Sequence record: OM858838
DNA: 64,000 nucleotides
Reading direction: 5' to 3' (one strand)
Origin: Shigella phage B2
The notes beneath the pieces were generated by a model. The model searched no databases and was not told the origin of the DNA. It saw nothing but the letters and a program-made list of their open reading frames with translations. Shown in pieces: positions 2,472-52,298 of this stretch. Position numbers and translations under genes: made by a program. Each line of letters opens with the position of its first letter. Within the stretch, counting starts at the first letter, position 1.

Positions 2472-2474
2472 ATC

Positions 2475-3695: not shown

Positions 3696-3830
3696 ATGTC
3701 TAAACATCCTATCGCTTGGGATATCTTTCGTATCCCTGCAAAACTCGTCTGTCGAACCAAGAAGAACCATGTAGCCAATATTGCTCGTAGCAATGGCTTC
3801 AGAGTGATTCCTGTGTTCGGTAGAGGTTAA
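3696..3830 (+). CDS. small hypothetical protein (44 aa)
   Basis: short ORF with ATG 2 nt after upstream stop; weak. Confidence 0.3.
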   Translation: MSKHPIAWDIFRIPAKLVCRTKKNHVANIARSNGFRVIPVFGRG

Positions 3831-3853
3831 AGCCCCTTCGGGGCTTGCTTTGG
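3831..3853 (+). promoter_or_regulatory. TTC-triloop hairpin (agcccc-TTC-ggggct) followed by TGCTTTGG; candidate hairpin promoter or processing site
   Basis: 6-bp perfect stem, 3-nt loop, no T-run; same architecture recurs at 6112 and 52104. Confidence 0.4.
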
Positions 3854-3928
3854 AAAAAAGAAAGAGGAATTCATCCTCTTCAAATCAAACTGTAATTTTT
3901 AATCCCAATCTGAAAAGGTAAAAAAGAA

Positions 3929-5371
3929 ATGGCTAAGACTCTTGAGCAAGATGAAAAGAAAGTACACGTTGCTGAAATCGTTCGTCACGGCGAAAAACTG
4001 ATTGTGCCGGAAGGCATGTCTCTGAGCGATGTTATCGACCTCGCTAAACGTCGCATGAAGTTCGAAGAAGAAGAAGTTCTGGTACGTCGTACCTATAACG
4101 TATTCCCATGGGATGGTGCTCATGCTCTGATGCTGGCACTGACCGAACGTTATGGCTGGGCTGCTGCTGAAGCAACTCCTGGTTTCTTCGGCTCCAATCC
4201 TCCGCAAATGCTGGATGTGCAGGTCGGCTATGGCAAAACCAAAAAAGTTCCATGGGGACGTTTCTCTCTGCCACAGGTAGATGGTTTTGTTCAGTGTTCT
4301 GCACAGAAGAAAGATGGTCGTATCAGCTTCGAACTGGTCGGTAAAGTCCTGCGTAAAGACGAAAAGACTATCGAACTGCTGTTTGATACCGTTGAGCAAA
4401 CTCTGCGTACCAACTCCATTTACATGGGTCAGGCTATCAAAATCCGTTTCCGCGATAACGATGGCGACCTGCTGGAAATGCCGGAACCAGAATTCATGGA
4501 CCTGCGTGGTATCAGCCGTGATTCTCTGGTTTATTCTGACGATGTTCAGAACCTGATTGAAACCAACCTGTTTACGCCGATTGAGCGTGTTGCTGACTGT
4601 ATCGCTAACGATATGCCGGTTAAACGTGGCGTTCTGCTGGGTGGACCATACGGTACTGGTAAAACTATGGCTGCAACTGTTGCTGCTGCTCTGGCTACCA
4701 ACGTGGGTGTTACCTACGTATACGTACCGCGTTCTGATGAACTGTCTGATGCAATTCAGTTTGCTAAGCAGTACAGCGATAAAGCCTGCGTAATCTTCTG
4801 TGAAGATATCGACCGTGCCGTATCCGGTGAACGTAGCGTGAAGATGGACGATATCCTGAACATTCTGGATGGTATCGACACCAAAACTTCTCGCATCATC
4901 ACCGTTCTGACCACCAACCATCTGGAAAACATCAACCCAGCAATGCTGCGTCCGGGCCGTCTGGATGCAATCATCGATGTTACTGCGCCTGATGCGAAAG
5001 CTGTTGAAAAACTGGTTCGCCTGTATGGTCGTGACACCATCGCTGCTGATGCAGACCTGACTCTGGTCGGTGAAGCTCTGGCTGGTACTATTCCTGCGGT
5101 AATCGCGGAAGTTGTTAAGCGTGCGAAACTGCACCAGCTTCAGTATCAAGAAGCAGGTACTCTGATTGAAGAAATCAGCGGTCAAGCTCTGCTGGATTCC
5201 GCTCTGACTATTCAGGCACAGCGTAAGCTGCTGGAAGAACAGTCCAAGCCGAAAGTTAAAGAACCAACCTTCAACGAAACTATCGCTGCTGCTGTTGCTC
5301 CGGCAATTGCTGAAGCTGTAGGTAAAGTTGCTGGTCAGGTTTCTGAACTGCACGAACGTATCGTCGGCTAA
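3929..5371 (+). CDS. classic-clade AAA+ ATPase, codon-optimised (highly expressed)
   Basis: Walker A GGPYGTGKT, Walker B VIFCEDID, second region of homology with RPGRLD; strong host-like optimal codon usage (CTG, CGT, GGT, AAA) distinct from neighbours. Confidence 0.85.
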   Translation: MAKTLEQDEKKVHVAEIVRHGEKLIVPEGMSLSDVIDLAKRRMKFEEEEVLVRRTYNVFPWDGAHALMLALTERYGWAAAEATPGFFGSNPPQMLDVQVGYGKTKKVPWGRFSLPQVDGFVQCSAQKKDGRISFELVGKVLRKDEKTIELLFDTVEQTLRTNSIYMGQAIKIRFRDNDGDLLEMPEPEFMDLRGISRDSLVYSDDVQNLIETNLFTPIERVADCIANDMPVKRGVLLGGPYGTGKTMAATVAAALATNVGVTYVYVPRSDELSDAIQFAKQYSDKACVIFCEDIDRAVSGERSVKMDDILNILDGIDTKTSRIITVLTTNHLENINPAMLRPGRLDAIIDVTAPDAKAVEKLVRLYGRDTIAADADLTLVGEALAGTIPAVIAEVVKRAKLHQLQYQEAGTLIEEISGQALLDSALTIQAQRKLLEEQSKPKVKEPTFNETIAAAVAPAIAEAVGKVAGQVSELHERIVG

Positions 5372-5434: not shown

Positions 5435-6112
5435 ATGAAGAATCTTTACCAGAAGATTGATGGAAGCCAATACAACCGAATCTTCGTTGTAGGAGATTTA
5501 CATGGTTGCTTTGATGAATTCCAAAAAGAGATGTGGGCTGTTCAGTTTAATGCTGAAACAGACTTAATCATCTCTGTAGGTGATTTAATTGACCGTGGTT
5601 CACAGAATGTGAATTGCTTACGTCTGTTAAATGAACCTTGGTTTAAAGCTGTTCTGGGTAATCATGAAGTAATGGCACTCAATGCCTTATCTTCTGAACC
5701 TTCTTCTGAAGAAGGGGATTTAGCATATTACAATTGGTTCCGTAATGGAGGCATTTGGATTATGGATATTCCTGAAGAACAGAAACCAGAAGTATTAGAA
5801 TTATTTACTCAGGTAGCAGAACTGCCTGGTATCATTGAAGTCTCAGTAGGTGACAAGACTATTGTTATCTGCCATGCAGACTACCCTTCAAATCAGTATC
5901 AATTCGATAAACCAGTTGATGAGGAAACTCTTATCTGGGGTAGAGAGCGTATAGCTCAAAACCAAAATGGAGAAGGTACTGTCATTCAAGGTGCTGACGA
6001 ATTCTACTTCGGTCACACACCTGCCAAAGACCCTATGCAATTTCATAACCAACATTACATTGATACCGGAGCAGTATTCGGTGGTCGATTAACATTGGTT
6101 CAAATCAAATAA
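5435..6112 (+). CDS. PPP-family Ser/Thr protein phosphatase (metallophosphoesterase)
   Basis: GDLHG, GDLIDRG and GNHE signature motifs in canonical order; GGAGG SD. Confidence 0.85.
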   Translation: MKNLYQKIDGSQYNRIFVVGDLHGCFDEFQKEMWAVQFNAETDLIISVGDLIDRGSQNVNCLRLLNEPWFKAVLGNHEVMALNALSSEPSSEEGDLAYYNWFRNGGIWIMDIPEEQKPEVLELFTQVAELPGIIEVSVGDKTIVICHADYPSNQYQFDKPVDEETLIWGRERIAQNQNGEGTVIQGADEFYFGHTPAKDPMQFHNQHYIDTGAVFGGRLTLVQIK

Positions 6113-6134
6113 CTGCCTTCGGCAGTTGCTTTGG
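6112..6134 (+). promoter_or_regulatory. TTC-triloop hairpin (actgcc-TTC-ggcagt) followed by TGCTTTGG
   Basis: 6-bp stem, 3-nt loop, overlaps stop codon of phosphatase gene; identical downstream octamer to hairpin at 3831. Confidence 0.4.
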
Positions 6135-20190: not shown

Positions 20191-20218
20191 AAGCCCCATC
20201 CTTGGGGCTTTTCTTTTA
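20191..20218. terminator. bidirectional intrinsic terminator between convergent + and - strand genes
   Basis: stem aagcccca/tggggctt flanked by A-run upstream and T-run downstream. Confidence 0.55.
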
Positions 20219-23200
20219 GTACAAACTCACCAGAGGGTGTACTGTAAGTCCATTCAATGCTGTACCCATCCCAACGTTATAACTCAGACTACCAGTTACT
20301 AAGTTGGCTTCAGTAATGTTAGGTAATCCAGATTCAACACTGTTACCAAACATCAGGAACAATGCTCTCAATGGATTCTCTCTAATCGTTCTCAGAATGA
20401 TTTTCTGGATACGAATCTTATAGTTCAGGAACCAAGTTAAACCAATAGCATCCAGATAGAATCTGGTACGACTTGGTAACACATCATAGTTCACGAACTC
20501 ATCCATCACTCTGTTAAGCGCACTGTCTTTATCCATTGGATTACTCTTACGAGTAGTCAAATGTTTATACAATGAATACTTAGCAACAAAGTCACCATAC
20601 TGGATTGAACGGTTCAGTAAGAAGTACACGTTACTATCTCTTGAAAGGGTAACTTCCTTAGCAACACGTTTAACACTATCTGGAATACCAGATGTGTATT
20701 CATCCATCTTATTAAGTAATTTATCTTTCAATGAATAGTTATCTTGCTGTCCTAAATCCTCTGCAATGGTAGGCAGTAAACCTGCTTTGATTAAATCAGC
20801 AACAGGGTTACGAGCCTGAGAATCTTTCAGTTCTGAAATCTTTCTCTGATATTCGTCAGCCATTTTAGGATTATGGTTTACAGCCAGATAGTGAGAATAC
20901 TCGTTAATCAGTTTCTCATTCTTTCTGTACTCCTCAGCAGCCAGTACAGCAGTAGACATATCCTTAGCCATAGTCACAGGGCTTACACCAACAGTAGCTA
21001 AGTGAACCATGTTAGAAACAATGTTCGCTGCTGATACAACTATTGAACGAACTACAATCCAATCCTTCATTTCCTTCACGAATTCCATCAGACCACGTTC
21101 ACCAAGTCTCAGATAGCGAGCAGCATTCTTACCTAAGAAGGTTTCAGCAATGCTGGTGAAAGCTTTCTGGAACTCTTTAGAGTAACCAGTCTGACCAGTC
21201 CACATATTCAGTACAGAAGGTTCACGATAACCAAATGCGTTATTCAGTAAATCCTTACGTACTTTAATCTTACCATCAGGCCAAATCTTCTTAGCTTGTT
21301 CCTTCATCTCAATAGGCATCAGTTCATAAATCTCTTTTAACTGATGGTCTGTAGAGTTCTCATCCATAGTAATGTATTGGTATGCCCTGCCTTCTCTGGC
21401 ATCCTTCACATACATTTCATGGAGTCTCTGGAGCAACATTTCATTGTATCTGGCTGCCTGAATCTCCTCAGCAATACGACCTTCCCAAGCACCGATTACC
21501 TTAGTGAAATCATTATCTACATCCAAATGTGCTTCTTTGTTAGCTCTAGGCATCTGATATGAGTAACCCATAATTGAACCAGCACGATTCAATACAGGTT
21601 GCATATATGAGTTATTGCCAGTAGGCATAGGAGCATTTGCATCAAATAAATTATCAATACTGCTTCTCTTACGAGTAGATAAATTATTCTTCTCAGTAGC
21701 TCTCCATATACCCGGAGTCATAGCACCATTCACAGTTCTACCTGTAATTGGGTTTACTCCACCTACGGTGTTTTGCAGGGTACTCATTACACCAGCAATC
21801 CAACGAGGTTCACCACCATTGTTTGAATGGTAGTAATACATTGGTTCCTTGTTGGTATCCTGTGGGTCACGAGCAACCTGAGCACCTCTGGTATACCCTC
21901 TACGAGATAAGCTTGGTTCATCTTTAATAGATGCAATAATCACTTTCTTGTTAGGGTCTGACAGAGTAGGAGTAAATCCTTTAATCCCAGCTAGTGCTTG
22001 GTTTTGACCAGACTTAGCTAACTCTGCACCCTGCAAGCTTGAATAATATTTGAGAGTGAAAGTCATCCCATTATTATTTGGTTCACCTTTAGTCATCTCT
22101 CTATTAATCAAATTACTTACAGTAGCAATATCAGTCTGAGATAACTCTTTCAGTGCTGCCAGAGAAGCCATAGTATCAACCAATTGAGTAACAGTATTAA
22201 CTGTTGCATCATTAGGTCTAACTCTGCCAGTACCAATTAAACGAGCAATAGCTGCTGCGTTAGGTAACTGATAAGCCAGTGGACTAACTCCATGAACCAT
22301 TTGTTTAGCTAATCCATATGCAGACTTAATATAGAAAGGAGCATTCTGTGCACCTGCTGTCTGCAATTGAGATTCAATAGAAGCAATCTCTTTAGCCAGT
22401 TCAGTTGGATTGGTTAAGAGTTCATTCAGTCGTGCCAAGTCATATCCATTGGCAAACAGATAAGCCATATCAGTATTAGCAACTACTCTCTGAATAGCTT
22501 CTTTCTCTGTTTGGTTCAGGGATACAAATGTACTCTCAATCATACCCGGAACCATCTCACGAATAATCTGACGTGCTCTATCAGCAGCCATATTCTTCTG
22601 AGTCAGTAAGGTATGAATGGTGCTATTGGTTTCGTTAGAACCAATGAACTCATTAATCAGTTCAGCAACAGTACCTAACTTGCCATTCTGGTGAATGGTC
22701 ATATAAATGTTAGTGATAGCATCACGTACATCCTGAGCATCTTGGTCATTGAATACTGCTGAACCAGCAGTGATACCAAATGCTACAGACTTAGGTACTT
22801 TCTTCTCTACCTTGAGTAACTGTCTACGGATAGTGTGACCAAAGGATTTGAGTTTATCCTGAGTAGTATCAGTGATTTTCTCTGCACCTCTAACCAATCT
22901 ACCAAACAGATTGTCTCTGGCTTCACTATCAACATGACTAATATTCTTAGCCAGTTTAGTTAAGCGAGAAGCAACGTCAGTATTACCCAAAGACTTAGTA
23001 GCCAAACCCGATAACCAAGTAAGAATGGCATTGGTTAAATCACCAATACGTTCTCTCAGAGTTGTAGCTGGAGTCTGTCTGGTACGCTTAACACTAATCT
23101 GAGAAAGTTTATTTCTCAGTTGTTCATTGGTTTCTGCCAGTGCAATGAAGTTAGCCAGTCTATTAGTACGACCAGTAGCATCAGTAGTCACAGCAGTGTT

Positions 23201-26200
23201 ACCAAATACAGCATCATATCTTTGTTTAGCTAATGCCATTTCACTAGCTGAACGATTATTAGGGTCAGTTAAGAAGTCTTCTACTTTCAAGGTATCTCTG
23301 GCTTGTGCATACAAACTACGTGCAACCAGAACACTTGGAGAAAAGTTCTCTAAACCATACTTCATAGAAACTTGCAGCATCTTGAATACAAATGCTTCTT
23401 TCTCACTCATGTTAAAACCATGAGCAATCAATGCATTTGGAGAGTTATCAATCTCTGGGTCGATACTATCTACCAGAAGTTTTTCCTGATAATGGTCTAA
23501 ACCAGAGATTTGCTGACCAGTATTCTTAATCACTTTAATGATATTTGACTGGAGATAATCCAGTGTATCAGTCAAATGATTCACATGGTCTTGCGTAGCT
23601 TTACCAGCATCCAGTTTATTAAACAGAGTTTCTGCATCTAATCTATTGATGTTATTAGCATTGGTTTGAGCATAGCTAGTTTCATCATTAGATTTAACCG
23701 GATTAGTAGAGTCAGTTAAAGCAACTGTATGCCCTAACAGACGTGACCAGTAAGAGGTAACATCTGGATTAGAGCCAATAGCAAACAGGCGCTTAATAGA
23801 ATCAGCTAACTGTTTGAGTACATTGGTAACAGTCCCAGCAATAGTCTTCTGAGTCATTGCATCAATCATTCTTGGGTTAACTAATCCCCATGCAATAAAC
23901 TCAGCAGTAGCTTGAGACATATTACCAGAAGCGATATGAGTATTAATCAGGTCTACTACAGCATCAGTTTCTGGATTGGTGCTTGAATATTCATTCACAA
24001 ACTTATTCATCAATCCTTCAATTGAAGCTACTTCTACTCTCTGAGCAGGAGTAATTGCTTCTGGATTGCTGTAATAGTTATGAACAGTATCAGCAGTAGC
24101 AGCATGAATTAACTCATGCATTACTGTCTCAATAGACTGAGAACCAATATAGATGTTCTGGCCTTGTGTAAGACCCAAGAACGTGTCATTAAACTCAACC
24201 TTAGTATCAGGTGTCATTTCCTGTTGAACGCCTGAGAGAGCTTCTGGTGAGCCTACATACACATTAATATCATTAGGGATAGAATTGATAATCTTATCCA
24301 GAATGAAACCAGTGATTCTATTCTGGCGAGAAGGCAGAGATTTAGCTGCCTCTCTTACAGCAGCAACCACATCACCTTTAGCCAGAACTTTAACACCTTC
24401 ATGACCTTTTACAGTTCTACCATTTCTATCCAGAGCCTCAGTCATCTGACGAGTAGGAGGAATGGTTACTCTACCTTTAGGTAGAGATACAGAATCCATA
24501 GTAGGTAATTCAGTATTGGCTACTAACTGTTCCAGAGGAGTTCTGGTATCAGTTGCTTCTCCATCAGTCTGTTTACCATTCTTAACATTGAATGGAATAT
24601 TGGCACCAGTCATCTGGTTAATGGAGGTAATAGCCTCACCACCTAACAGACCTTGTTTAATAGCAGTCTGAGTAGCAGCTTCTCTCTTAAGCAGAGTAGT
24701 GAATGCTTCAACCACTTCTGGACTAGTAGGTGCATTAGTTTCATCAGCACCAATCATTTCCATAATTCCACGGAAAGACTGTTCCAGACGAACATCTGCT
24801 TCTGGACCTAATTCCTCTGCCAGATTCACTCCATCCATTGCTTGCTCAAAACGGTTAGTGAAATCTTGCAGTAAATCGAATTCATTCCAGCTTTGCAGAA
24901 CACCTTGGTTAATAGCCTGAGAACCAGTATCCAAATGAGATACAGCATTGATGTAGCCATCGAATACGTTCAGAGCATTGTTAGGATTGATATCACGAGC
25001 AATAGCCTGCATAGCTGCTTCTACAGACTGAACCAGTAAAGGCATTACACGAGTACCCGGTTCAGTATAAGTAGGCATATCTACACCGAAGGTAGAACGA
25101 CGCATCTTACCATCCAGTTCTCTACGTCCTCTGGATTCCATTCTGTGTACGTCAGATGGAACACGCCCTTCCTCACTCAGAAGAATACCTTCATTCAGCT
25201 TTTCAACATCTAAGTTGTTAGCAGTAAACCAAGAATTGAAGATTGGCATTGAACCAATCAAGTAATTCTTAATGTCGTTGTACTGCTGCTGAGATAGAGA
25301 TTCATATTTAGATAACTTACCTTCTTTACGAAGTTCAGTTTCTAATCTCTCTACTTCTTTATTCCAACGAGACATGAATACTTCATGCATTACAGCAGCA
25401 GCATAGACCATCATCTTGCCACGATTAACTACAGTACCAAATTCATTAGCAATGGATTCGTTTACTGCTGCACCAATACCAATCTTGATGTTCTGAGTAA
25501 TAGCTTCGATTTGTTCACCGTCAAATTCAAACATAGTCACATCCTGACCTAAGTTGATAGGTGAACCAATCTGAACCCAAGAACCATTTCTGAATACCCG
25601 AGCAGTAGTCAGTTCATTAGTTGTATTAGTTAAGTCATTGATGTGTTCAATAGCAGCATCACGTTCTTCCTGATTAGTAGCTGCATCAACTGCTCTCAAT
25701 GCTTCTGTGATTGCTTCGTAATATCCATTAGCAATACCCATAGCAATCTTTCTATTGATTGCAGTAGCACCGCCTGAATAAACAGTTACTGTTACTGGAT
25801 TCTTAAGTAAACCTCGACCAATCTGAATTGGATGGTCTACATTTTCACCTTCAACAATATTCACATCACCAATCAGTTTGGATGCAGCAAGAGTAACCCT
25901 CATCTGATTCTTCAGACGTTCAATTTCACGCATTTCTTTTTGCTGGAATTGACGTGGTTTATTCTTCATTGCAGCAATTCGGTTAGGAATATTTCTAACT
26001 GAATCCATCATTCTATTGATGTATTGCTGACTATCAGCAGCAGCAGTCTTATACAGGTCTAAGAATCCCGGTTCTTCAGCAGCATCATTATACAGACGGT
26101 CAGACTGCCCATAGAAGAAACCGCCCTTCTCCAATTTATTCAGTAAGTCCTGGTTCACATCTTTCAAACCAAGCTGAACAATGGAGTTAAATGGTCCATT

Positions 26201-29200
26201 AGTAACACCATCAAGCTCCAGCATTACATGAGTCTGGAATGAGGTCTTACCTTGTTCTACAGCCAGTTCATATTGAGCCTGTGCATACAGAGCATGGAGA
26301 GTCTTAGTCTTCTCCTTACCTGCTTTAACAGCCTGCAACAAAGTCTCAGCATCACTATCACTGATGGCATCCTGATTCTCAGCAGCTTTAAGGATATCGA
26401 TAGCATCTCTGAACAGACCAGTACTGATAGCTTTATTCAGTCTATCTCTGGCTGTTTCAGAAGACAGCTTATCAACAGCAATATCTAAGCCCTGAGCAAT
26501 TGCATAATCAAGGAATGCACCATGCTGAGGGTTATTCAGTTCAATGGTAGATGGTTCAACAGTAACCAGTTCACGATGTAATTTAGCTGACTGAGGATTC
26601 AGGTCACCAGAGTTAAGCATCATACGGAAGTTACTGATTACGTTATAACCAAAGTAAACAGGAGTGGTAGCCAAAGGTAATCCAGCTTCAACCATTCTAG
26701 TTAAACCATTAACCAGAGTATTTATATCTCTTTCAATGGTACGGTTAGAACCCTGAATAGATTTCAGGTGAGCACCGTTAGTATTCTCTTCTGACTGAAT
26801 GCCTAACATTCTACCAATCCACTGAGTACCTAACTTATCAAGCATCAGGTCATGCAGACCCATGTTAATGAAGTGAGGTTGTTTGCTAGCTTTGTTACGA
26901 GCAGCAAGCATCTTCTCAGGGATATCCTGACCACCACCATTCTTAACTTTAGTGCTTTGACCTTTTGGTGGAGTACCAAAGTATGCACCTGCTCTTTCTC
27001 TCTGAGGATTAGTCAGTTGACCTAACAGGTCATTAGAATTCTGCATCAATTCTACTAAACGAGTAGCAGCAGGAGACTCTTCATTCATACGAATGAATAC
27101 ACGAGAGTTCTTCATGTTTGAGTCATTTACTTTAGTAGAACCAACAGCAGCTAATTCAGAGTTTTTAACAACTGATTCCTGAACCAGATTAGCATTAATC
27201 ATTACGTTCAATACTTCAGATGCCATTGCTTTAGACACAGCATCACGTACAGAGATAGGTGCATTAGGGTCTGCATTGATACCTAATACTCCAAAGATTT
27301 CTCTGCTTAAATCATCAATAACATTCTGACGGTCAGTACCAACGTTACGCAGTAAGTCAGTCTGTTCTACAGTTGGCCTAGTCTTGTTATCTAAACCAAG
27401 AATATCCATTACTGTACGGTCATCATTGAATGTAGTTTCAGATGCATTACGTACAAACCACTGCATCATTCCAGCAGTCATTGCTTCAATTACTGGCTGC
27501 GGTAAGAAGTAAACATTCTCACCATTGATGTTTCTAACTTCATCAAAGTACTCAACAGGATAAGTTTCCCAGAAGATACGCTGACCTTCAGGAGTTAATT
27601 TACCCCAAGACTGAATCAGAGATTGTTCAATAGCAGGGACTAAACCAGCAAACTGACGAAGTACATTTACTTCTTTCTCAGTTACTTGTTCTGGTTTGAT
27701 ATAACCTTTAAACAGATTCTGAATCTGAGTAATAGGATTAGAACCATTAGTAAAGATGCTATTAAGTCTCCCAGAGAAATTAGAAGTTCTCAGGAAAGCT
27801 GAACGTTTACCGGTAGGTTTAAACCATTTCTTAACTTGGTTTGTAGCTTGATATTCTTTATCTACATCAGAAGTAGACTTAGCATCAGAGCGTATTGTCT
27901 CTGCTTGCAGTCCATTCAGAATGTCATAGTTAACACCTTTCTCTGAACCAAGGTCTAATTGAGACTCATCCATCAGGTCAGTTTCTACATCAGTAGGTTT
28001 TTCCTGTAACTGGATATCAGATTCTACAGTATCTGGTTTCTCAAACAGTTCACCCTGTACAGGTTCAGTACGTACAGCTTCCTCAGACGCTACTGGCTGA
28101 GTTATTTCAGGCTGTACTGGTGTTTGTACCTCTTCCTGAGAAGTCTGCTCAGAAGTCTCTACAGGAGCTTCTACAGTAGTCTGCTGAGATACAGGTTGAG
28201 GGAAAGTATTCCTGACGTGGTTCAGGAAATCAGTACGTGCCTGAGAAGGTGTAGCCCATACTTCACGAGTACTACGTAAACTGAAGATATGCCCATCTGG
28301 TGTCATAACGTAAGGTACATTAGTGTCACCATAATTAAAGGAAGACAGAACATCCTGTTTACCAGTAACTGTGTCCTCTCCAGGAATAATAGTAGTTTTA
28401 CCACCATTAACCGGAACGGCACGAATACCCCCCATGTCTTTACCAATAGCAATATAGTCTTTGCCATTATAGGTAAAGTACTGACCTAACTGCATATACA
28501 GTGCCTGCTGCTGTCCAGTAAATTCAGCAGATTTCATCTCAGGACCGGCAGGGATACCACTAGAAGTAGTCTGCTGAGGAGCTGGTTTAGTTTCTTTTTT
28601 AACAGGTGCAGATTCCTGAGTCTGGTTGTTCACTTCTTCAGAAGCAACAGGAGCAGACTGTGCAGGGATATCTACAGGTTTACCATCTACCAGTTGACTG
28701 GTAAGGGTATGAGCCAGTCTTACTGCATCAGCATCATTACGAATCTCTTGGATTAATCCTTTAGAACGTACCGGATGGTACGTCATTGGATTTCCATCGA
28801 GAGACAGGTATGGCTGACCAGTAGTAGGATTAATTACTTCTACAGGTTGATTTCCAGTAAAGTTCTGAGCAGCTTGGTCAAAGGCAGCAGCCTTAGTTTC
28901 CATATGTTCAGCAAAGCGATTCAGGTGGTCTAACAGACCCTGAGCACGAGCAGTATCACCTAATGATAATGCACGGAAGATACCTTGCTGATATTGCTGG
29001 ATACCAATAAAGCCATCCGAACCTTCACGTACATCTTTACCTACTTGGCTCATAGCCTTACCAGTAGCAGAGATGACCTTAAGTTTATCCACATCCTGCT
29101 GACTTAAACCAAGAGTATCAGCAGAGTTAACTAAACGGTCAGCTACATCTGGAGTAATAGAAGATGCATCTAAGTTCATCTGAGCCAGAACAGATTTAAC

Positions 29201-31441
29201 ATTCTTCTGAACTTCAGGAGATTTGTAAGTCTCTGGAGTAATCTCAGAAGGTAATGATTCCATGACTTTAGTCATTTCATCAGGAGTCAGTTTAAATCCT
29301 TCAGCAGTAGTCTTAACTGCCTGTACATCAGGATGATTCAGTACAGCATTAATATTATCAATAGCAGTCTGATACTGAGCTTTCTGGTCTTCTGGAGCAG
29401 CATCCATCTGTGCCTGAATCTGAGGTAATGCTTCTTCATATGCAGAGATAACACTGTTACCAACAGTAGCTAAATCTCTACGAGAAGCTTCATCTAGATT
29501 ACGTTCTTTAATGGCACGAGAGATTCTCAGAATAGAATCAGGAGAACTGATTTCTTCTTCTGGAATAGCTTTGAATACTTCTTTGGCAGCAGGTTCAGTA
29601 ACAGCATCTACAGCTTTAGTAGTTACAGTTGGTTCTACTGGCGCTTCAGTATTAGTTTGTGGGGCAGCTTGTTTAACTGATTCATTGGCAGCAGATACAG
29701 TATTTCTAAAGTCTTGTGCTCTGCTTTCAGTTCTACGAGTCTGTCTTGCATCAAATGCTGTACGACCTTGTTGAACTCCTTCTTGGATTGCTCTAGGTGT
29801 CTCACTGATAGCTGAACCAACAGCACCCATACCCGCACCAGCAATAGCAGATTCAGCAACGTTTGAACCAATACCCTCAATGAGGGATTGAGATTCGTCA
29901 GCAGAGCTACGTACCCCGAGATTAGAAGCGAACTGACCAGAAGCGCCCTGTAATGCTTCCTCAACAGTCTCTTTAGCAGCATTCTGTGAAACCCTTGAAG
30001 ATGCAGCCAGTAATCCTTTACCTTCCAGTAAAGATGGAGTTAACAGACGTGATTCAAAGGGAGCAGCAACCTTACCAGTTAATGCACCTAAAGTACCTGC
30101 CACAGCAGAAGTAACATTACCTGCTTGAGTACGTACCTGACTTCTAGCCTGAGATGGTGTAGCACCTTCAGCAATAAGGTCACGATACATTGGTGATTTT
30201 TCAGCTAACTGAGCATCAGTTAATTTATCAATCTCATCCAGTGACTGTTGAGCATTTGAACCAGCTTCTTGGAAACCAACGTAACCAATAAATGCTCTTT
30301 CAGCAGCATCCTGTAGACGCTTTCTACCAAACTCAGTAGCAGCTAATTTAGTAGCAAAGTCCTCACCATACTCTTGAGCCAATTGCTTCAAAGCACCACG
30401 AGTAGCTAACTTACCTACGATACCACCAGTCAGTAAGTCTGGAGCAGATTCAGCAATCAGAGTAGTTAATGCACCTGGTGAAGTACCATACTGTTCAGCA
30501 GTATTAACGAACTGACGTAACTGTTCCTTAGCACCAGCTACTAATGGATTATCACCTTTAGCAATATCAGCAGCTTCTCTTGCTGCACCGCCTTGTTCAA
30601 AGCGTTGCTTATTGGCTTCGATAACAGATTGTTCATATTGAACAGCAGGAGAATACTGAGAACGCTGTTCATCAACGAATTCTTTTAATGGCTTATCAAT
30701 ACCTGCTTGGTCTAACAGAGTAGGTTGCCCTACTTGGTCTTCTTGACCAGTAACATTAGCAATTAAATCCTGAGCATTCTGTAATGCTAAGTTACCTAAA
30801 CTAGTAGCAAATCTTGCAGTATTACCTGCCCATACTTGGGCAGCATTACCAATGTCTGAAAGTTCCATAGGAGCATTTTCAAACTGGTCTGTATTAGCTT
30901 GAGCAATATTTAATGCAAGTTTGTCTCTAGCCGCTTGAGGACCATACTTCTGCTGTAAAGCAGAGATAGGCATATCTTTTAAATCAGCAAGATATTGGTC
31001 ATTTGGATTAGTCTGTGCAGCTTGATTAGGAGCTACATAGTTAGGATGACTTGGGTCAAAAGGACCAGTACCACCAAATTCAGGAGATACTTGAGGATTA
31101 ATCATCCTACGATAGAAAGGCTTAGTTGCTGCAATAGCATCATAGTTAGCCTGCATATCAGGAGTGGTTGGTTGAGTCTCAGGAATATTAAAATTATTAA
31201 TATTCTGACCAGTCAACATTGCCTGCATCTGTTCACGAGTATATTTAGGACCAGATTCAGCCAGACGAATAGCTTCCTGTCCTCTCTGATATTCAGGAGA
31301 ACCTACAGGGAAATCTGTTTCTACTCCGGGTACTGGAGCACCCATCTCTACTTGTTTCTGCTGAGTGGCTTGATTTAGTTGTTGTGTTTTTTGTAAATCA
31401 ACTCCAGCTAATTGTTGTTCTTTTTCAAATCCGGTAGCCAT
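20216..31441 (-). CDS. giant virion RNA polymerase (N4 vRNAP-like), 3741 aa
   Basis: T7-like RNAP motifs: A (MLELDG, D1744), B (R1876-x3-K1880-x7-Y1888-SG), C (VFDG, D2161); Y-to-D spacing of 273 residues equals that I recall for N4 mini-vRNAP; position downstream of structural genes. Confidence 0.85.
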   Translation of the reverse strand: MATGFEKEQQLAGVDLQKTQQLNQATQQKQVEMGAPVPGVETDFPVGSPEYQRGQEAIRLAESGPKYTREQMQAMLTGQNINNFNIPETQPTTPDMQANYDAIAATKPFYRRMINPQVSPEFGGTGPFDPSHPNYVAPNQAAQTNPNDQYLADLKDMPISALQQKYGPQAARDKLALNIAQANTDQFENAPMELSDIGNAAQVWAGNTARFATSLGNLALQNAQDLIANVTGQEDQVGQPTLLDQAGIDKPLKEFVDEQRSQYSPAVQYEQSVIEANKQRFEQGGAAREAADIAKGDNPLVAGAKEQLRQFVNTAEQYGTSPGALTTLIAESAPDLLTGGIVGKLATRGALKQLAQEYGEDFATKLAATEFGRKRLQDAAERAFIGYVGFQEAGSNAQQSLDEIDKLTDAQLAEKSPMYRDLIAEGATPSQARSQVRTQAGNVTSAVAGTLGALTGKVAAPFESRLLTPSLLEGKGLLAASSRVSQNAAKETVEEALQGASGQFASNLGVRSSADESQSLIEGIGSNVAESAIAGAGMGAVGSAISETPRAIQEGVQQGRTAFDARQTRRTESRAQDFRNTVSAANESVKQAAPQTNTEAPVEPTVTTKAVDAVTEPAAKEVFKAIPEEEISSPDSILRISRAIKERNLDEASRRDLATVGNSVISAYEEALPQIQAQMDAAPEDQKAQYQTAIDNINAVLNHPDVQAVKTTAEGFKLTPDEMTKVMESLPSEITPETYKSPEVQKNVKSVLAQMNLDASSITPDVADRLVNSADTLGLSQQDVDKLKVISATGKAMSQVGKDVREGSDGFIGIQQYQQGIFRALSLGDTARAQGLLDHLNRFAEHMETKAAAFDQAAQNFTGNQPVEVINPTTGQPYLSLDGNPMTYHPVRSKGLIQEIRNDADAVRLAHTLTSQLVDGKPVDIPAQSAPVASEEVNNQTQESAPVKKETKPAPQQTTSSGIPAGPEMKSAEFTGQQQALYMQLGQYFTYNGKDYIAIGKDMGGIRAVPVNGGKTTIIPGEDTVTGKQDVLSSFNYGDTNVPYVMTPDGHIFSLRSTREVWATPSQARTDFLNHVRNTFPQPVSQQTTVEAPVETSEQTSQEEVQTPVQPEITQPVASEEAVRTEPVQGELFEKPDTVESDIQLQEKPTDVETDLMDESQLDLGSEKGVNYDILNGLQAETIRSDAKSTSDVDKEYQATNQVKKWFKPTGKRSAFLRTSNFSGRLNSIFTNGSNPITQIQNLFKGYIKPEQVTEKEVNVLRQFAGLVPAIEQSLIQSWGKLTPEGQRIFWETYPVEYFDEVRNINGENVYFLPQPVIEAMTAGMMQWFVRNASETTFNDDRTVMDILGLDNKTRPTVEQTDLLRNVGTDRQNVIDDLSREIFGVLGINADPNAPISVRDAVSKAMASEVLNVMINANLVQESVVKNSELAAVGSTKVNDSNMKNSRVFIRMNEESPAATRLVELMQNSNDLLGQLTNPQRERAGAYFGTPPKGQSTKVKNGGGQDIPEKMLAARNKASKQPHFINMGLHDLMLDKLGTQWIGRMLGIQSEENTNGAHLKSIQGSNRTIERDINTLVNGLTRMVEAGLPLATTPVYFGYNVISNFRMMLNSGDLNPQSAKLHRELVTVEPSTIELNNPQHGAFLDYAIAQGLDIAVDKLSSETARDRLNKAISTGLFRDAIDILKAAENQDAISDSDAETLLQAVKAGKEKTKTLHALYAQAQYELAVEQGKTSFQTHVMLELDGVTNGPFNSIVQLGLKDVNQDLLNKLEKGGFFYGQSDRLYNDAAEEPGFLDLYKTAAADSQQYINRMMDSVRNIPNRIAAMKNKPRQFQQKEMREIERLKNQMRVTLAASKLIGDVNIVEGENVDHPIQIGRGLLKNPVTVTVYSGGATAINRKIAMGIANGYYEAITEALRAVDAATNQEERDAAIEHINDLTNTTNELTTARVFRNGSWVQIGSPINLGQDVTMFEFDGEQIEAITQNIKIGIGAAVNESIANEFGTVVNRGKMMVYAAAVMHEVFMSRWNKEVERLETELRKEGKLSKYESLSQQQYNDIKNYLIGSMPIFNSWFTANNLDVEKLNEGILLSEEGRVPSDVHRMESRGRRELDGKMRRSTFGVDMPTYTEPGTRVMPLLVQSVEAAMQAIARDINPNNALNVFDGYINAVSHLDTGSQAINQGVLQSWNEFDLLQDFTNRFEQAMDGVNLAEELGPEADVRLEQSFRGIMEMIGADETNAPTSPEVVEAFTTLLKREAATQTAIKQGLLGGEAITSINQMTGANIPFNVKNGKQTDGEATDTRTPLEQLVANTELPTMDSVSLPKGRVTIPPTRQMTEALDRNGRTVKGHEGVKVLAKGDVVAAVREAAKSLPSRQNRITGFILDKIINSIPNDINVYVGSPEALSGVQQEMTPDTKVEFNDTFLGLTQGQNIYIGSQSIETVMHELIHAATADTVHNYYSNPEAITPAQRVEVASIEGLMNKFVNEYSSTNPETDAVVDLINTHIASGNMSQATAEFIAWGLVNPRMIDAMTQKTIAGTVTNVLKQLADSIKRLFAIGSNPDVTSYWSRLLGHTVALTDSTNPVKSNDETSYAQTNANNINRLDAETLFNKLDAGKATQDHVNHLTDTLDYLQSNIIKVIKNTGQQISGLDHYQEKLLVDSIDPEIDNSPNALIAHGFNMSEKEAFVFKMLQVSMKYGLENFSPSVLVARSLYAQARDTLKVEDFLTDPNNRSASEMALAKQRYDAVFGNTAVTTDATGRTNRLANFIALAETNEQLRNKLSQISVKRTRQTPATTLRERIGDLTNAILTWLSGLATKSLGNTDVASRLTKLAKNISHVDSEARDNLFGRLVRGAEKITDTTQDKLKSFGHTIRRQLLKVEKKVPKSVAFGITAGSAVFNDQDAQDVRDAITNIYMTIHQNGKLGTVAELINEFIGSNETNSTIHTLLTQKNMAADRARQIIREMVPGMIESTFVSLNQTEKEAIQRVVANTDMAYLFANGYDLARLNELLTNPTELAKEIASIESQLQTAGAQNAPFYIKSAYGLAKQMVHGVSPLAYQLPNAAAIARLIGTGRVRPNDATVNTVTQLVDTMASLAALKELSQTDIATVSNLINREMTKGEPNNNGMTFTLKYYSSLQGAELAKSGQNQALAGIKGFTPTLSDPNKKVIIASIKDEPSLSRRGYTRGAQVARDPQDTNKEPMYYYHSNNGGEPRWIAGVMSTLQNTVGGVNPITGRTVNGAMTPGIWRATEKNNLSTRKRSSIDNLFDANAPMPTGNNSYMQPVLNRAGSIMGYSYQMPRANKEAHLDVDNDFTKVIGAWEGRIAEEIQAARYNEMLLQRLHEMYVKDAREGRAYQYITMDENSTDHQLKEIYELMPIEMKEQAKKIWPDGKIKVRKDLLNNAFGYREPSVLNMWTGQTGYSKEFQKAFTSIAETFLGKNAARYLRLGERGLMEFVKEMKDWIVVRSIVVSAANIVSNMVHLATVGVSPVTMAKDMSTAVLAAEEYRKNEKLINEYSHYLAVNHNPKMADEYQRKISELKDSQARNPVADLIKAGLLPTIAEDLGQQDNYSLKDKLLNKMDEYTSGIPDSVKRVAKEVTLSRDSNVYFLLNRSIQYGDFVAKYSLYKHLTTRKSNPMDKDSALNRVMDEFVNYDVLPSRTRFYLDAIGLTWFLNYKIRIQKIILRTIRENPLRALFLMFGNSVESGLPNITEANLVTGSLSYNVGMGTALNGLTVHPLVSLY

Positions 31442-31516
31442 TAGGAATCCTCAGAAGGGAAATAACTGATATGAAGTGTACTAAAAGAAATCCCTCACTA
31501 GGAGGGATTTTGTCAT

Positions 31517-32941
31517 TTATCTGGTAGAAGTATTCACTTTTGGATTACCTAACGTATCCTCAAGGAACTTTCTAAGCTCTTGCCGTTGTCCTGTGTAATC
31601 AGGAACAACTGGCTGGAATGCAGGTACATCAGTACCAGTGATATTAGCTTTAGGAATATTCCTTTGAAACTGAACCAATGGAGCACTGGCTTGTTTCATT
31701 AAAGTATCACCTGACTTATCTACCAATCTTAATGCATCTGTTAATGCTTGCTTGGCAGCAGCATTGTTAGCAGTCTTCATAATGTCTTTAGCATTGGATT
31801 CAACATCCCCAAAAGAGATTGTTACACCATCTGCTAAACCACCCCATCTAGATGGGCTAAGAGACTTCTCAACAATGTATCCAATGGTTGCTGGAGTAGC
31901 ATTAGGATACGCTTTCTTAGCTCTAGTATAGGCTTCTGTGGCTTCATTAGGGTCTGCTAATCTACCTTGCAAACTCTTAATTACATCATCAGCAGAAGTC
32001 TTTTTATCGTCCTGTAAATTAAATACAGTTGGGTCAATACCAGAACTTAAGAATGCAGCATTAACTTCCTGTGTAGCATCAGCTTTATACTGGTCAGCAG
32101 CTTCTTTAATCAATGCACTCTGGTTCTGAATAACTGCTGTTTGAGAAGGAGTAGGAGCACCAAGAGTAGCAATGTTTTGAGCTACAGCACCAGCAACCTG
32201 ATTACCTGTAACAGGGTTAATATCATATTTCTTCTGCAACTCAGCAGCTTTAGCAGCAGGAGATTTATCTGGATTATCCAGAACCCATTGGTTTAATTCC
32301 TGACCATAAGAACGTAAATTACTACGCTCTTTATTAGCAGCATTCCTTTCAGCATTAGCAGAAGCTCTAGCAGCACGAGATTCAGCAAGCTGTGCTCTCT
32401 GTAATCCCATCTGTTCAATCTGCTGTCTACGGTTAGTCAAATCACCATACAATTGACGAGAGTCAGCAAAATTAGCTTCATTGGCTCTCAAGAACTGTTC
32501 AGCCTGATTAGGATTAGAAGCCAATAAAGAATAGAACTGATTCTCAAATGGTTGAGAAGCCTGTTCCTTCTGTGCTTGTTCTAATTGAATCTGACCTTGT
32601 AAGTCCTGTCTCAATTGTCCGGGACGAGTAGCCAATGTCTGGTTAATAGCAGACTGGTCTACAGCAGCACCAAACCTTTCTCTTAAAGCATCTGGATTAA
32701 AGTCTGCTCTTGCAGCATCTAATTGAGATGGGTCAGTAAAACCAAGTAATTGATTCTGAATATCAGCAGTATTTTGAGTACGTGCCGTATTAAAATTGAT
32801 ATTACTTAGCTGTTGATTCTGCTGAATAGGGGCTAATAAACCAGAGATTGCATCTCTGATACTTTGATTGCCAGCAAGTTGAAGTCTGGCTACTCCACCT
32901 AAGTCTGGAGCATCAATATTTCTCCAAGTAATCTGAGCCAT
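31517..32941 (-). CDS. virion structural protein (Q/N/A-rich)
   Basis: large ORF in late operon upstream of vRNAP. Confidence 0.55.
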   Translation of the reverse strand: MAQITWRNIDAPDLGGVARLQLAGNQSIRDAISGLLAPIQQNQQLSNINFNTARTQNTADIQNQLLGFTDPSQLDAARADFNPDALRERFGAAVDQSAINQTLATRPGQLRQDLQGQIQLEQAQKEQASQPFENQFYSLLASNPNQAEQFLRANEANFADSRQLYGDLTNRRQQIEQMGLQRAQLAESRAARASANAERNAANKERSNLRSYGQELNQWVLDNPDKSPAAKAAELQKKYDINPVTGNQVAGAVAQNIATLGAPTPSQTAVIQNQSALIKEAADQYKADATQEVNAAFLSSGIDPTVFNLQDDKKTSADDVIKSLQGRLADPNEATEAYTRAKKAYPNATPATIGYIVEKSLSPSRWGGLADGVTISFGDVESNAKDIMKTANNAAAKQALTDALRLVDKSGDTLMKQASAPLVQFQRNIPKANITGTDVPAFQPVVPDYTGQRQELRKFLEDTLGNPKVNTSTR

Positions 32942-32950
32942 GATTTCCCC

Positions 32951-33415
32951 TTACAGACGGTTCTTATCTAAATAGCTTTGAACGTCCTGTTCTTTACCAG
33001 CATAGTCAGAAGTACGACCTCTAATACGGTCTTCTAAAGCAGTATTATAAGTCTGTCTCTGGTTAGCCAAGTTTGTATTAAAAGCATTCTTCTGGAAGTT
33101 CAATTGGTCTTTAGCTAAGCCAAGAGTCTGCATACCATTCCATGCTTGGAACAATGAACCAAGACCTTGTAAGGTAGGAGATACTATACCCATAGATTGA
33201 AAGCCTGTAGATGGGTCAGTACCACCAAACAAAGAACGACTAGTATCGCCATTTAACCAATTAGAGAATGCTGAAAACATTCCATTATCTGCAACTGGAG
33301 CATTACCTGTACTCAAAGGAGCATTTAATACAGAACTTTGAGTAGGATTATATCCACCCGTTAATAGTTGAGCTTGGTCTGGGGCTTGATACCCAAAATT
33401 TAAATCAAATGCCAT
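32951..33415 (-). CDS. virion structural protein
   Basis: ORF in late operon. Confidence 0.5.
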   Translation of the reverse strand: MAFDLNFGYQAPDQAQLLTGGYNPTQSSVLNAPLSTGNAPVADNGMFSAFSNWLNGDTSRSLFGGTDPSTGFQSMGIVSPTLQGLGSLFQAWNGMQTLGLAKDQLNFQKNAFNTNLANQRQTYNTALEDRIRGRTSDYAGKEQDVQSYLDKNRL

Positions 33416-33417: not shown

Positions 33418-35745
33418 TTAACTCCTTAATGAATTTAAGTCAGTAGGTAATGTTAAAGCATAATCCACATAACTACCGATACTATCTAGTGTAACAGTAC
33501 CTGGATTCATATTTAATGTTCTGGCGAAAAATTCATCTGGTTGTTCAAACAGATTAAAGAATGCAGCATTCATTAAACCATCAATATCAATATTGGGATT
33601 TGGATTACCAAGAGCATCCATAGCATCTTCGATATCTTGCATCTGCTTCTGGTAGTTTTCTTGGTTCTTCTGCATGTCTTTAATTACATCTTGTAATTCT
33701 CTCTGTAGCTCTCCCTGAGCACCTTTTGATACAGCAGGTACTAATCCCATTACCTCATTAGCATAAGGCAACCCAGCATTGCCTGTAGAGCCATATGATT
33801 GGTATGCAGATACTGCCCCATATGCCAGCATAGCTACAGCAGCAATAAACATGATATTTGGTCCAAGGTATCTAGCCAACAAAGACATACCTACACCAAT
33901 AGCAATACCAATTGCTACTTGAGTAGCTAAGTAAATTGCTACAGCTAATGCCACTGATGTACCAGCAGCAGTTGCACCTGCGGCAGCAGCAGCTACCCCA
34001 GCAGATAATGTACCAGCAGAGTACACAGCAATTACAACAGCAATGATAATGGTTACTACTTTGAATATACCTGTCTGATACCACTTAGCTTTAGTAACTT
34101 CATATGAGTTAACCACTATATGTAAGCAGTCAAACGTCATCTGAGTACGTTGAACAATCTGCTGTGCTTCTACTACGTTTACACATAAAGGAATTAAGAA
34201 GCCTTCATTGTCTGGGTCATTCAAACTAGCTTCACCAGTGATATTTACTGAGTGTCCTTTATATACATAATTAACATGTTCTAAACCACATACCTCTACT
34301 TCTTCATATTGAGTAGCTGAAATCTGTTTACGGAAAGTAATGACAGTTACATCAGCAGTCATCTCTGTTGATTGGTTAAATTGATTAATTATCTGGATAG
34401 CAGCAGCAGGTCCAGATGTTCTAGTCACAGTTCCTTTAGGACCAATAGAACCAGTCTTCACAATCAATGATGAGTATTGGTAAGCAATAGAAATATTGTA
34501 TGGGTCTTCCTTAAGACTCAATCTGTTTACAGGAGGCTTAGGGGATATGTTTGATATGCTACCTGTATCTGGGTCAACATTCTCATTATACCAAGTTACG
34601 TACTTGGTTTTATCTGAGGGGGATACCTGAGCCAAGTACTTAAAAAACTCATGTAAGTAATCCATAGAGGATTCATATTGTGAGTTCAGTGAGATGCCTA
34701 ATACAAAAAATGCATGGTCAATATCATCAACATCAGGGTTCTCATTAATCTTATCTCCAAGCATAGTGTACTTGAGATTAAGTTTATTCATGAGAGTCTT
34801 AGATGTTTTAAACATCTCAGGGCTTACATTAGCAGGGTCAGTGTAATCAGTGTTATTTACTCGTAATGGAACTACAGGATAGTAAGCAGAATCCTTAATG
34901 AAACTATCTTGAATAACATCAAGAGTAGGATACGTACCTAAGCCAGCCTGATAAATGAAGTACTGCTTACGAGACAAATCATCAACAATGACAGTTGTTG
35001 TAATCTTGGTTTCAGTCTCAGCATCATTTACTTCAGTCACTACTGTAGTTGTAGTGATAGTGAAATGACCAAAGTTATTATCTGTAGTCTCACTAGTAGT
35101 AGTGCCATCTACATCGCCCGGTTCAAATGGTCTGGTTTCAGTAGTGACAGTAGGAGTACCGGGAGTACGTACACGGTAAATAACTTGGTAGTATTCTTTG
35201 GTGTAATCGATATCAGGGAATGATTTATTCTCTGTAAAATCTATATCAGGTGGAGTATTACTCATCTGAATAGTAGCTACACCGTTGTTATCAATTGTCC
35301 AATCAATAACAGCATTAGCATTTACACCGGATGGTGGATTACCCATGCCTCCATAGTCTGCATCCCATTGGTATTGGTCAGTAAGATACTGCTCAATCCA
35401 ATAAGATAAATCAGCTACGTTATAATCAGACATGACTATAGATACTTGTTTGCCTGCATTCAGAGATGATAATACAGCCAGCAAATCATCATTATTAGGT
35501 GTTCCATAGAAGATGGAACCATCAGGTAAACCAAGTTCATAGTAATCTCTACCGTATCTATAGACCTGTCTAATCTTGGTTCCCATTCCTTTGAGATATG
35601 CTTGTGGGATAGCTGTACCAAAGTCACTACCCTGCATTACAGAAGACGTGATTAGTTTCTGTAAAAAGTTAGTAGGGTTATCCCCTGCTAAGTTAACAGT
35701 GACTGAAGATACAGAGATGATTTTCTTTCTACTGAATAATCCCAT
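33418..35745 (-). CDS. virion protein with ~80-residue hydrophobic membrane-spanning segment (candidate ejection/channel protein)
   Basis: long Ala/Ile/Val/Gly-rich hydrophobic tract; T-rich N-terminal half. Confidence 0.55.
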   Translation of the reverse strand: MGLFSRKKIISVSSVTVNLAGDNPTNFLQKLITSSVMQGSDFGTAIPQAYLKGMGTKIRQVYRYGRDYYELGLPDGSIFYGTPNNDDLLAVLSSLNAGKQVSIVMSDYNVADLSYWIEQYLTDQYQWDADYGGMGNPPSGVNANAVIDWTIDNNGVATIQMSNTPPDIDFTENKSFPDIDYTKEYYQVIYRVRTPGTPTVTTETRPFEPGDVDGTTTSETTDNNFGHFTITTTTVVTEVNDAETETKITTTVIVDDLSRKQYFIYQAGLGTYPTLDVIQDSFIKDSAYYPVVPLRVNNTDYTDPANVSPEMFKTSKTLMNKLNLKYTMLGDKINENPDVDDIDHAFFVLGISLNSQYESSMDYLHEFFKYLAQVSPSDKTKYVTWYNENVDPDTGSISNISPKPPVNRLSLKEDPYNISIAYQYSSLIVKTGSIGPKGTVTRTSGPAAAIQIINQFNQSTEMTADVTVITFRKQISATQYEEVEVCGLEHVNYVYKGHSVNITGEASLNDPDNEGFLIPLCVNVVEAQQIVQRTQMTFDCLHIVVNSYEVTKAKWYQTGIFKVVTIIIAVVIAVYSAGTLSAGVAAAAAGATAAGTSVALAVAIYLATQVAIGIAIGVGMSLLARYLGPNIMFIAAVAMLAYGAVSAYQSYGSTGNAGLPYANEVMGLVPAVSKGAQGELQRELQDVIKDMQKNQENYQKQMQDIEDAMDALGNPNPNIDIDGLMNAAFFNLFEQPDEFFARTLNMNPGTVTLDSIGSYVDYALTLPTDLNSLRS

Positions 35746-52209: not shown

Positions 52210-52213
52210 ATTA

Positions 52214-52288: not shown

Positions 52289-52298
52289 CCAAATAATG

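Follow-up and report, generated by a model that had tools for sequence, protein, structure and literature searches.

The question raised by this locus is whether a very long open reading frame (ORF) of Shigella phage B2 encodes a virion RNA polymerase (vRNAP) of the phage N4 type, and what is to be made of an HExxH motif that lies beyond its catalytic core. We analyzed a window of 64,000 nucleotides (nt) from sequence record OM858838, in which the ORF occupies positions 20216 to 31441 of the minus strand and runs uninterrupted from an ATG start through 3741 codons to its stop. We conclude with high confidence that it encodes a virion-packaged, single-subunit, T7-like RNA polymerase of an N4-like phage (Schitoviridae, Ithacavirus-type), with a zincin-like domain, C1, in its C-terminal part.

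The virion RNA polymerase gene and its catalytic motifs

The following features define the gene and its polymerase core.

20216..31441, minus strand: vRNAP gene, N4 gp50 homologue, 3741 amino acids (aa) plus stop (ORF translation, phmmer, PHROG 2206, DNA identity)
24476..27826, minus strand: polymerase domain, aa 1206-2322, equivalent to N4 mini-vRNAP residues 998-2103 (phmmer, Pfam)
26624..26626, minus strand: R1606, equivalent to N4 R424 (full-length R1421), of the T/DxxGR motif, here ISNFR (alignment)
26210..26212, minus strand: motif A Asp, D1744, equivalent to N4 D559 (HMMER and MAFFT alignments)
25772..25816, minus strand: motif B, R1876, K1880 and Y1888-S-G, equivalent to N4 R666, K670 and Y678 (HMMER and MAFFT alignments)
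24959..24961, minus strand: motif C Asp, D2161, equivalent to N4 D951 (HMMER and MAFFT alignments)

A phmmer search against all PDB sequences matched full-length N4 gp50 (3500 aa; PDB 11gp and 9pnr) with E=9e-185. The matched stretches were aa 214-714, corresponding to N4 114-601, and aa 1306-3739, reaching N4 residue 3497, and identity was 28% over 3268 aligned positions. The crystal chains of the mini-vRNAP, 2po4 and 3c2p, were also recovered (E=4e-47). The three Pfam models vRNAP_dom_2, N4_RNAP_helical and vRNAP_dom all exceeded their cut-offs, and PHROG 2206, 'virion RNA polymerase', matched all segments of the protein. A first-pass annotation of this DNA had proposed a 3741-aa vRNAP of the N4 type at this position, about 240 aa longer than the N4 enzyme. 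The phmmer, hidden Markov model (HMM), Pfam and PHROG matches bear out the assignment, and the difference in length is 241 aa exactly (3741 versus 3500).

In DNA, nine Salmonella phage records, among them vB_SenP_UTK0001/2, FSL SP-076, FSL SP-058, S5, SP154 and As2, match the gene at 96.4-98.7% identity, and the Klebsiella and E. coli phages Pylas, MY01, KpCHEMY26 and Pollock match it at 81-84%. Whole-gene DNA matches were restricted to the Schitoviridae. FSL SP-076 is classified in the Schitoviridae, subfamily Humphriesvirinae, genus Ithacavirus, and its own gene is annotated "virion RNA polymerase". Relative to FSL SP-076, SP-058 and vB_SenP_UTK0001, all Ithacavirus, the gene has the same start and stop and 97-98.7% DNA identity. 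The proteins are 98.5-100% identical in most 200-aa windows, whereas the linker that flanks an insertion described below is more diverged, at 85-92% identity. Because these near-identical Ithacavirus genes are already annotated, this kind of gene has been sequenced and annotated before, and the finding is correct, ordinary and already known. The annotation itself adds little; the linker insertion and the promoter set reported below are minor new details.

We aligned residues 1701-2241 with chain 2po4 using HMMER. Motif A paired 'leldgvtngp' with N4 'veadgvtngp', motif B paired 'grgllknpvtvtvysgga' with 'krgiaknpltitiygsga', and motif C paired 'lnvfdgy' with 'lkifdgm'. An independent MAFFT alignment to gp50 taken from the N4 genome gave the same five residue equivalences. 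The coordinates and the motif A, B and C assignments proposed earlier for D1744, R1876, K1880, Y1888-S-G and D2161 thus hold, each residue falling inside a catalytic motif and on its N4 counterpart. So does the claim of a common spacing between the motif B Tyr and the motif C Asp, which is 273 residues both here and in N4 (Y1675 to D1948; Y678 to D951 in the mini-vRNAP). The interval from the motif A Asp to the motif B Tyr differs, with 144 residues here against 119 in N4, that is, 25 extra residues.

Conservation of these positions was assessed in HMM alignments of family representatives. D1744 was Asp in 137/137 sequences, R1876 was Arg in 129/131, K1880 was Lys in 130/131 and Y1888 was Tyr in 131/131, while the D2161-G pair was retained in 127/127. 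The position of R1606 was Arg in 128 of 129 sequences. The remainder of the T/DxxGR motif is variable across the family (T or S in 80/129, G in 70/129), and it reads ISNFR here. By analogy with N4, D1744 and D2161 would serve the two Mg ions and R1876, K1880 and Y1888 the incoming nucleoside triphosphate, with R1606 as a further catalytic residue.

T7 RNA polymerase is likewise a right-hand, single-subunit enzyme with T/DxxGR, A, B and C motifs. Its Y639-to-D812 spacing is 173 residues, not 273, and it is unpackaged, uses double-stranded promoters and has no giant N- or C-terminal domains. phmmer against PDB chains found no sequence match between the vRNAP and T7 RNA polymerase. The relationship between the N4 and T7 enzymes is attributed to Kazmierczak et al. 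2002, as that work is cited in PMC5512222 and PMC13492108.

N4 gp50 (PDB 2PO4, 3C2P, 9PNR, 11GP) has the same layout, with an N-terminal domain, a low-complexity linker, the T7-like polymerase, a short linker, and subdomains C1, which carries HExxH, and C2. The two proteins share the catalytic residues, the 273-residue spacing, the position of HExxH, the neighbouring genes gp51 to gp54 and the geometry of the hairpin promoters. The protein studied here differs by an 85-aa N-terminal stretch, by several linker insertions, one of them the 146-aa module, by the 25 extra residues between motifs A and B, by the reduction of T/DxxGR to ISNFR, and by the deletion of R2279.

The HExxH motif and the C1 domain

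Beyond the polymerase domain, the sequence contains the elements of a predicted metal site.

23708..24424, minus strand: C-terminal subdomain C1, aa 2340-2578, predicted zincin-like metallopeptidase (MPTase) domain
24104..24118, minus strand: HExxH, H2442-E-L-I-H2446 (M-HELIH, aa 2441-2446) (alignment to N4, conservation, model helix)
23900..23902, minus strand: E2514 in the 'AEFIAWGL' helix, predicted third metal ligand of the gluzincin type (conservation, model helix)

The first-pass annotation had regarded HExxH as an extra motif, about 280 residues past motif C, that could be a chance match or a metal site. The motif is real at aa 2442-2446 (nt 24104-24118) and lies 281 residues past motif C. 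It is not extra, given that N4 has an equivalent at the same position: MAFFT aligned it with N4 H2228-E-L-V-H2232, 280 residues past motif C in that protein, and the N4 equivalent of E2514 is E2310 in 'NEFMAWGL'.

Could such a motif arise by chance in a very long protein and be functionless? HExxH occurs once in the vRNAP, where composition predicts 0.035 occurrences, and 3.7% of composition-preserving shuffles of the 3741-aa protein contain one. By itself the motif is therefore weakly unusual, and it is conservation that settles its reality. We searched aa 2330-2600 with phmmer among 1.84 billion cluster representatives and obtained 270 proteins at E<=1e-3. Of the best 150 of these, 127 are 3000-4325 aa long and match near residue 2000-3000, and all 150 have HExxH inside the matched domain. 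When these best 150 were aligned with the protein studied here, H2442, E2443 and H2446 were retained in 151/151 sequences and E2514 in 150/151; the Glu followed the second His by 61-83 residues, 68 in this protein. Both the motif and E2514 were also invariant in an alignment of the C1 region from eleven phages (Ithacavirus, Enquatrovirus, Gamaleyavirus, Kaypoctavirus, Eceepunavirus, Dongdastvirus, Oliverunavirus, Plymouthvirus, Zurivirus and two unclassified), the invariant columns being a G, E-T..H-E..H-A and a cluster A..E..A..L. A chance origin is thus extremely improbable. It is contradicted by the homologous position in N4, by retention in 151/151 sequences together with the flanking E-T and A and the distal Glu, and by placement in the expected helix of a zincin-like fold, and the conservation data rule it out. 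Between the two possibilities first raised, conservation and predicted fold favor a metal site. Homologues were taken from tblastn on phage records and from the exhaustive search of representatives; a homologue search of protein databases returned nothing for the C1 domain or for the linker insert.

An AlphaFold2 (AF2) model of C1 had a predicted local distance difference test score (pLDDT) of 87.5. HExxH (model residues 111-115) lies within helix 106-127 and E2514 (model residue 183) within helix 177-190. The best structural matches of the model were anthrax-lethal-factor-like zincins. A Foldseek search of the PDB gave no match at E<=0.001 and did not recover the N4 entries. Identity to anthrax lethal factor and Pro-Pro endopeptidase (MEROPS M34, ATLF-like) is only 9-13%, and the spacing to the Glu is longer here. 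C1 is read as a gluzincin-type, anthrax-lethal-factor-like zincin domain with predicted ligands H2442, H2446 and E2514 and with E2443 as the predicted general base. Since the full triad and the general base are as invariant as the polymerase active site, the domain probably binds metal. This invariance, across about 150 divergent vRNAP clusters, is a quantitative observation that argues for a functional site.

The domain has been noticed before in N4. The survey of 'polyvalent proteins' by Iyer et al. 2017 (PMC5512222) began from N4 vRNAP. It assigned residues 2130-2448 as a zincin-like metallopeptidase, one of the founding examples, described the His-His-Glu ligand arrangement, and proposed that the domain processes its own protein, within the capsid or once injected, or else attacks proteins of the host. 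The MPTase domains of that survey likewise have HExxH on one helix and the Glu on a later helix, with a variable insert between them, and are likewise embedded in giant proteins injected with DNA; their function is predicted for the whole group. Nothing sets the C1 copy studied here apart from those of the N4 clade. Bellis et al. 2026 (PMC13434306) solved the N4 polymerase with its C-terminal domain, which they split into C1 (2124-2375) and C2, and remarked without further analysis that C1 'possesses a conserved HExxH motif'. A second structure paper of 2026 (PMC13492108) does not mention the motif, and the invariance of the triad is discussed in neither. Bellis et al. also note that HExxH occurs in enzymes fused to radical S-adenosylmethionine (SAM) domains (PMC13434306), which is compatible with C1 being an Fe(II)/alpha-ketoglutarate-dependent HExxH oxygenase instead of a hydrolase; we consider this highly unlikely.

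Relatives of C1 were also found outside vRNAPs. A C1 profile matched chain G of PDB 9sfn, an 'Internal virion protein' of 1337 aa, with E=3e-10. This protein retains 'TvLHEaVHAAT' and 'vkElvAWGLT', and tblastn identified it as the gp37-type internal core protein of phiKMV/LUZ19-like phages; no publication accompanying 9SFN was found. Phage records with a C1-type domain include AJ505558 (phiKMV gp37) and NC_048758 (Serratia phage Parlo). Weaker tblastn relatives were internal virion proteins of Ralstonia and Xanthomonas podophages, a jumbo phage protein and a 'DarB-like antirestriction' protein. The gp37-type proteins of phiKMV and LUZ19 (9SFN chain G) and PhiM1 gp48 (PDB 8VB2) are components of Autographiviridae ejectosomes, are 1100-1340 aa long and differ from vRNAPs in having no polymerase domain. 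The HExxH...E-x-x-AWGL domain, whose ligands are intact in the largest internal virion protein of phiKMV/LUZ19-like phages, is thus a module that ejected proteins have in common.

Several points weigh against this picture of an N4-type enzyme with a catalytic C1. A Pfam search with the C1 segment gave no family, and no Pfam peptidase was significant among the 11 homologues, the best being Peptidase_M91 (E=0.041) and SprT-like (E=0.076). As no Peptidase_M* model exceeded its gathering threshold, C1 belongs to no curated Pfam peptidase family. Since the query used to fetch the best 150 representatives itself includes the motif, their conservation count carries a slight bias. Metal at HExxH is reported in neither of the 2026 cryo-electron microscopy papers (PMC13434306, PMC13492108), and our literature search found no experiment on metal binding or proteolysis for any vRNAP. 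N4 vRNAP is packaged unprocessed (PMC5512222), and the recombinant full-length protein is intact, with no degradation (PMC13434306, PMC13492108). Lastly, R2279 of N4 is reported to link C1 to the polymerase domain by a salt-bridge 'clasp'; here its position is lost in a gap of 4 residues (aa ~2480-2490, around nt 23970-24000), and the partner residue D2012 is kept as D2233. Because the R2279 position is deleted, details of autoinhibition and docking may differ from those of N4.

The odds that C1 is a peptidase, whether it cuts the polymerase itself once ejected or proteins of the host, are about even: conservation and fold point to activity, but cleavage of a vRNAP has never been seen in virions or in vitro. 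If C1 were active, the flexible linkers at aa ~936-1205 and 2323-2339 would be obvious substrates in cis. The protease would then free the polymerase from its autoinhibitory C-terminal domain or from the membrane-bound N-terminal domain, or would cut a host protein.

The stability of full-length vRNAP, uncleaved in virions and as a recombinant protein, fits a domain that binds metal or just keeps its fold and is no protease. C1 would in that case be a structural module for portal or core packing or for reversible C-terminal docking, and the related domain a building block in phiKMV-like internal virion proteins. Its occurrence in structural ejectosome proteins (9sfn_G, PhiM1 gp48) is in keeping with such a role. 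In N4, moreover, the C-terminal domain sits against the fingers and palm and keeps the motif B loop inside the active site. Its contacts with the polymerase, some of them made by C1, autoinhibit the enzyme, C2 packs on the polymerase, and the C-terminal domain is required for encapsidation (PMC13434306, PMC13492108). A purely structural role leaves unexplained, however, why E2443 (151/151) and the His-His-Glu triad are conserved among sequences otherwise ~20-30% identical. Degenerate zincin domains such as the lethal-factor N-terminal domain (M34) normally lose ligand or base residues, which counts against this explanation. We regard it as possible but less likely than not.

The extra length and the inserted linker module

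The regions that flank the polymerase core and C1 are as follows.

28637..31441, minus strand: N-terminal domain, aa 1 to ~935 (MAFFT to N4 gp50, phmmer)
31142-31396, minus strand: Q/N/P-rich stretch of 85 aa, aa 16-100, with no N4 counterpart (MAFFT alignment)
27827..28636, minus strand: low-complexity linker joining the N-terminal domain to the polymerase, aa ~936-1205, corresponding to N4 residues 907-1007 (alignment to N4)
28178..28612, minus strand: 146-aa in-frame inserted module, aa 944-1088, with a globular core at aa 966-1083 (nt 28193-28546) (gap in FSL SP-076)
20219..23707, minus strand: C2 subdomain, aa 2579-3741, alpha-helical (PHROG 2206 positions 2267-3404, phmmer)

In the MAFFT alignment, the excess length relative to N4 is accounted for by the 85-aa stretch at aa 16-100 together with several insertions located between aa 866 and 1186. 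The ~240 extra aa are thus unevenly placed: they belong to the N-terminal domain and to the linker, and a discrete inserted module makes up 146 of them. The N4 linker is described in PMC13434306. In N4, the N-terminal domain becomes inserted in membranes and has been implicated in the injection of the genome (PMC13434306, PMC13492108), and the N-terminal domain here would likewise associate with or enter the membrane. The helical C-terminal domain would be needed for packaging and would autoinhibit the polymerase until displaced, if it behaves as in N4.

The module is a clean 438-nt in-frame insertion relative to close relatives, whose proteins are 3595 aa long, and it is absent from all nine Ithacavirus records. 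A search of 50,697 phage records with its 118-aa core found one relative only, which occupies the same linker position of the vRNAP of E. coli phage G7C (Gamaleyavirus). The two copies share 65.8% of residues over a 144-aa tblastn match, 76% over the 118-aa core and 76.6% of nucleotides over 354 nt, whereas outside the module the two vRNAPs are 25% identical and not alignable as DNA. In G7C the module is a 154-aa insertion relative to the congener PhAPEC5, which is 92.7% identical to G7C. Searches with the module yielded only Ape1_N at E=0.057 in Pfam, nothing in PHROGs, nothing below E=0.1 in a PDB profile search, and only G7C itself in IMG/VR; no match came from one metagenome scan or from one scan of GTDB genomes. 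A single-sequence model was of low confidence, with a weak hint of an SH3-like barrel. An intein was considered and rejected, as the module has no Cys/Ser/Thr...His-Asn boundary signature and its flanks are ordinary linker sequence.

By these comparisons the module is an orphan domain, inserted independently at the same linker of two distant vRNAPs. The insertion agrees with the 'polyvalent injected protein' idea and singles out the linker as a place that tolerates cargo. Two further proposals extend the published readings: that C1 is a protease firing only after ejection, and that the module is an injected cargo or effector. We put them forward tentatively and judge them rather unlikely. If the first were true, a post-ejection C1 protease would be a proteolytic switch for the first transcription event in N4-like phages; if the second were true, the polymerase linker would be a site of payload swapping between phages of different subfamilies.

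Candidate promoters and neighbouring genes

In an N4-type promoter, a stem of 5-7 bp carries a 3-nt loop whose central base is a purine on the template strand, and the start lies 11 nt downstream. Five sites in the window resemble it.

57389-57407, plus strand: candidate vRNAP hairpin promoter (pattern scan)
58219-58237, plus strand: candidate vRNAP hairpin promoter (pattern scan)
59484-59504, plus strand: candidate vRNAP hairpin promoter (pattern scan)
59537-59556, plus strand: candidate vRNAP hairpin promoter (pattern scan)
62016-62034, plus strand: candidate vRNAP hairpin promoter (pattern scan)

On the coding strand, each has a perfect stem of 5-7 bp, C-TTC-G loop closure and TGG at +10..+12 from the loop centre, and all five sit just upstream of small plus-strand ORFs. 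Of 48 perfect hairpins with a 3-nt loop and a stem of 6 bp or more, 7 had a TTC loop on the plus strand, against 1.0 expected (P=7e-5). The pattern CTTCG-N7-TGG had 5 matches, all on the plus strand between 57393 and 62034, against 0.56 expected, and none of 100 shuffles reached 5. It corresponds, on the coding strand, to a template hairpin C-GAA-G whose GG start lies 11-12 nt from the centre of the loop. When Y is allowed in the loop, the pattern matches three places and no others within the first 9 kb of N4; these are the three N4 hairpins, P2 included, and the N4 P2 hairpin (GAAGC-GGA-GCTTC) matches the P2 oligonucleotide printed in PMC13492108. The five hairpins, whose geometry is that of N4 P1 and P2, are thus likely candidate promoters of the virion polymerase. 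On the N4 model, the central domain (aa ~1206-2322) would transcribe early genes from such hairpins once extruded from supercoiled DNA.

A second class of hairpins was observed on the plus strand at 3830-3853, 6111-6134 and 52104-52126. These have a GC-rich stem of 6-7 bp and a TTC loop followed by (G/T)C-TTTGG, so that GG lies 14-15 nt from the loop centre, 3 nt beyond its place in N4 promoters, and they do not fit the N4 start spacing. They precede an ATPase-like ORF (3929), a 104-aa ORF (6156) and a tRNA cluster, respectively, and they may serve as variant promoters, processing sites or terminators.

The vRNAP gene is bordered by expression signals and by homologues of its N4 neighbours.

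31448..31452, minus strand: Shine-Dalgarno sequence GAGGA, 6 nt 5' of the vRNAP ATG (direct sequence reading)
20191..20210, both strands: bidirectional intrinsic terminator stem-loop (terminator scan: 8-bp stem, T-runs on both strands)
31517-32941, minus strand: gp51 homologue (blastp to G7C/N4 gp51, E=2e-6)
32951-33415, minus strand: gp52 homologue (blastp to G7C/N4 gp52, E=1e-20)
33418-35745, minus strand: gp53 homologue (blastp to G7C/N4 gp53, E=1e-37)

The terminator lies 5 nt beyond the vRNAP stop, between the vRNAP gene and convergent plus-strand genes. By blastp, the order gp54-gp53-gp52-gp51-gp50 and the strand are kept as in N4 and G7C. In N4, gp51 and gp52 are ejection proteins that form the channel for the polymerase (PMC13434306). 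By analogy, a few vRNAP copies would be packed in the capsid and ejected through a channel made of the neighbouring gp51/gp52-like proteins.

Elsewhere in the window, seven tRNA genes (Asp-GTC, Ile-GAT, Ser-TGA, Asn-GTT, Arg-TCT, Thr-TGT and Leu-TAA) lie on the plus strand at 52135-53369 and account for part of the GC richness seen at 52-56 kb. At 3899-5353 (minus) and 3929-5371 (plus), in a locally GC-rich region (GC 0.47), the opposite strands carry two ORFs of about 480 aa that coincide over nearly their whole length. Because the plus-strand ORF matches PHROG 10440 over its full length (E=3e-277), with weak similarity to an ATPase family, the minus-strand ORF is probably a shadow.

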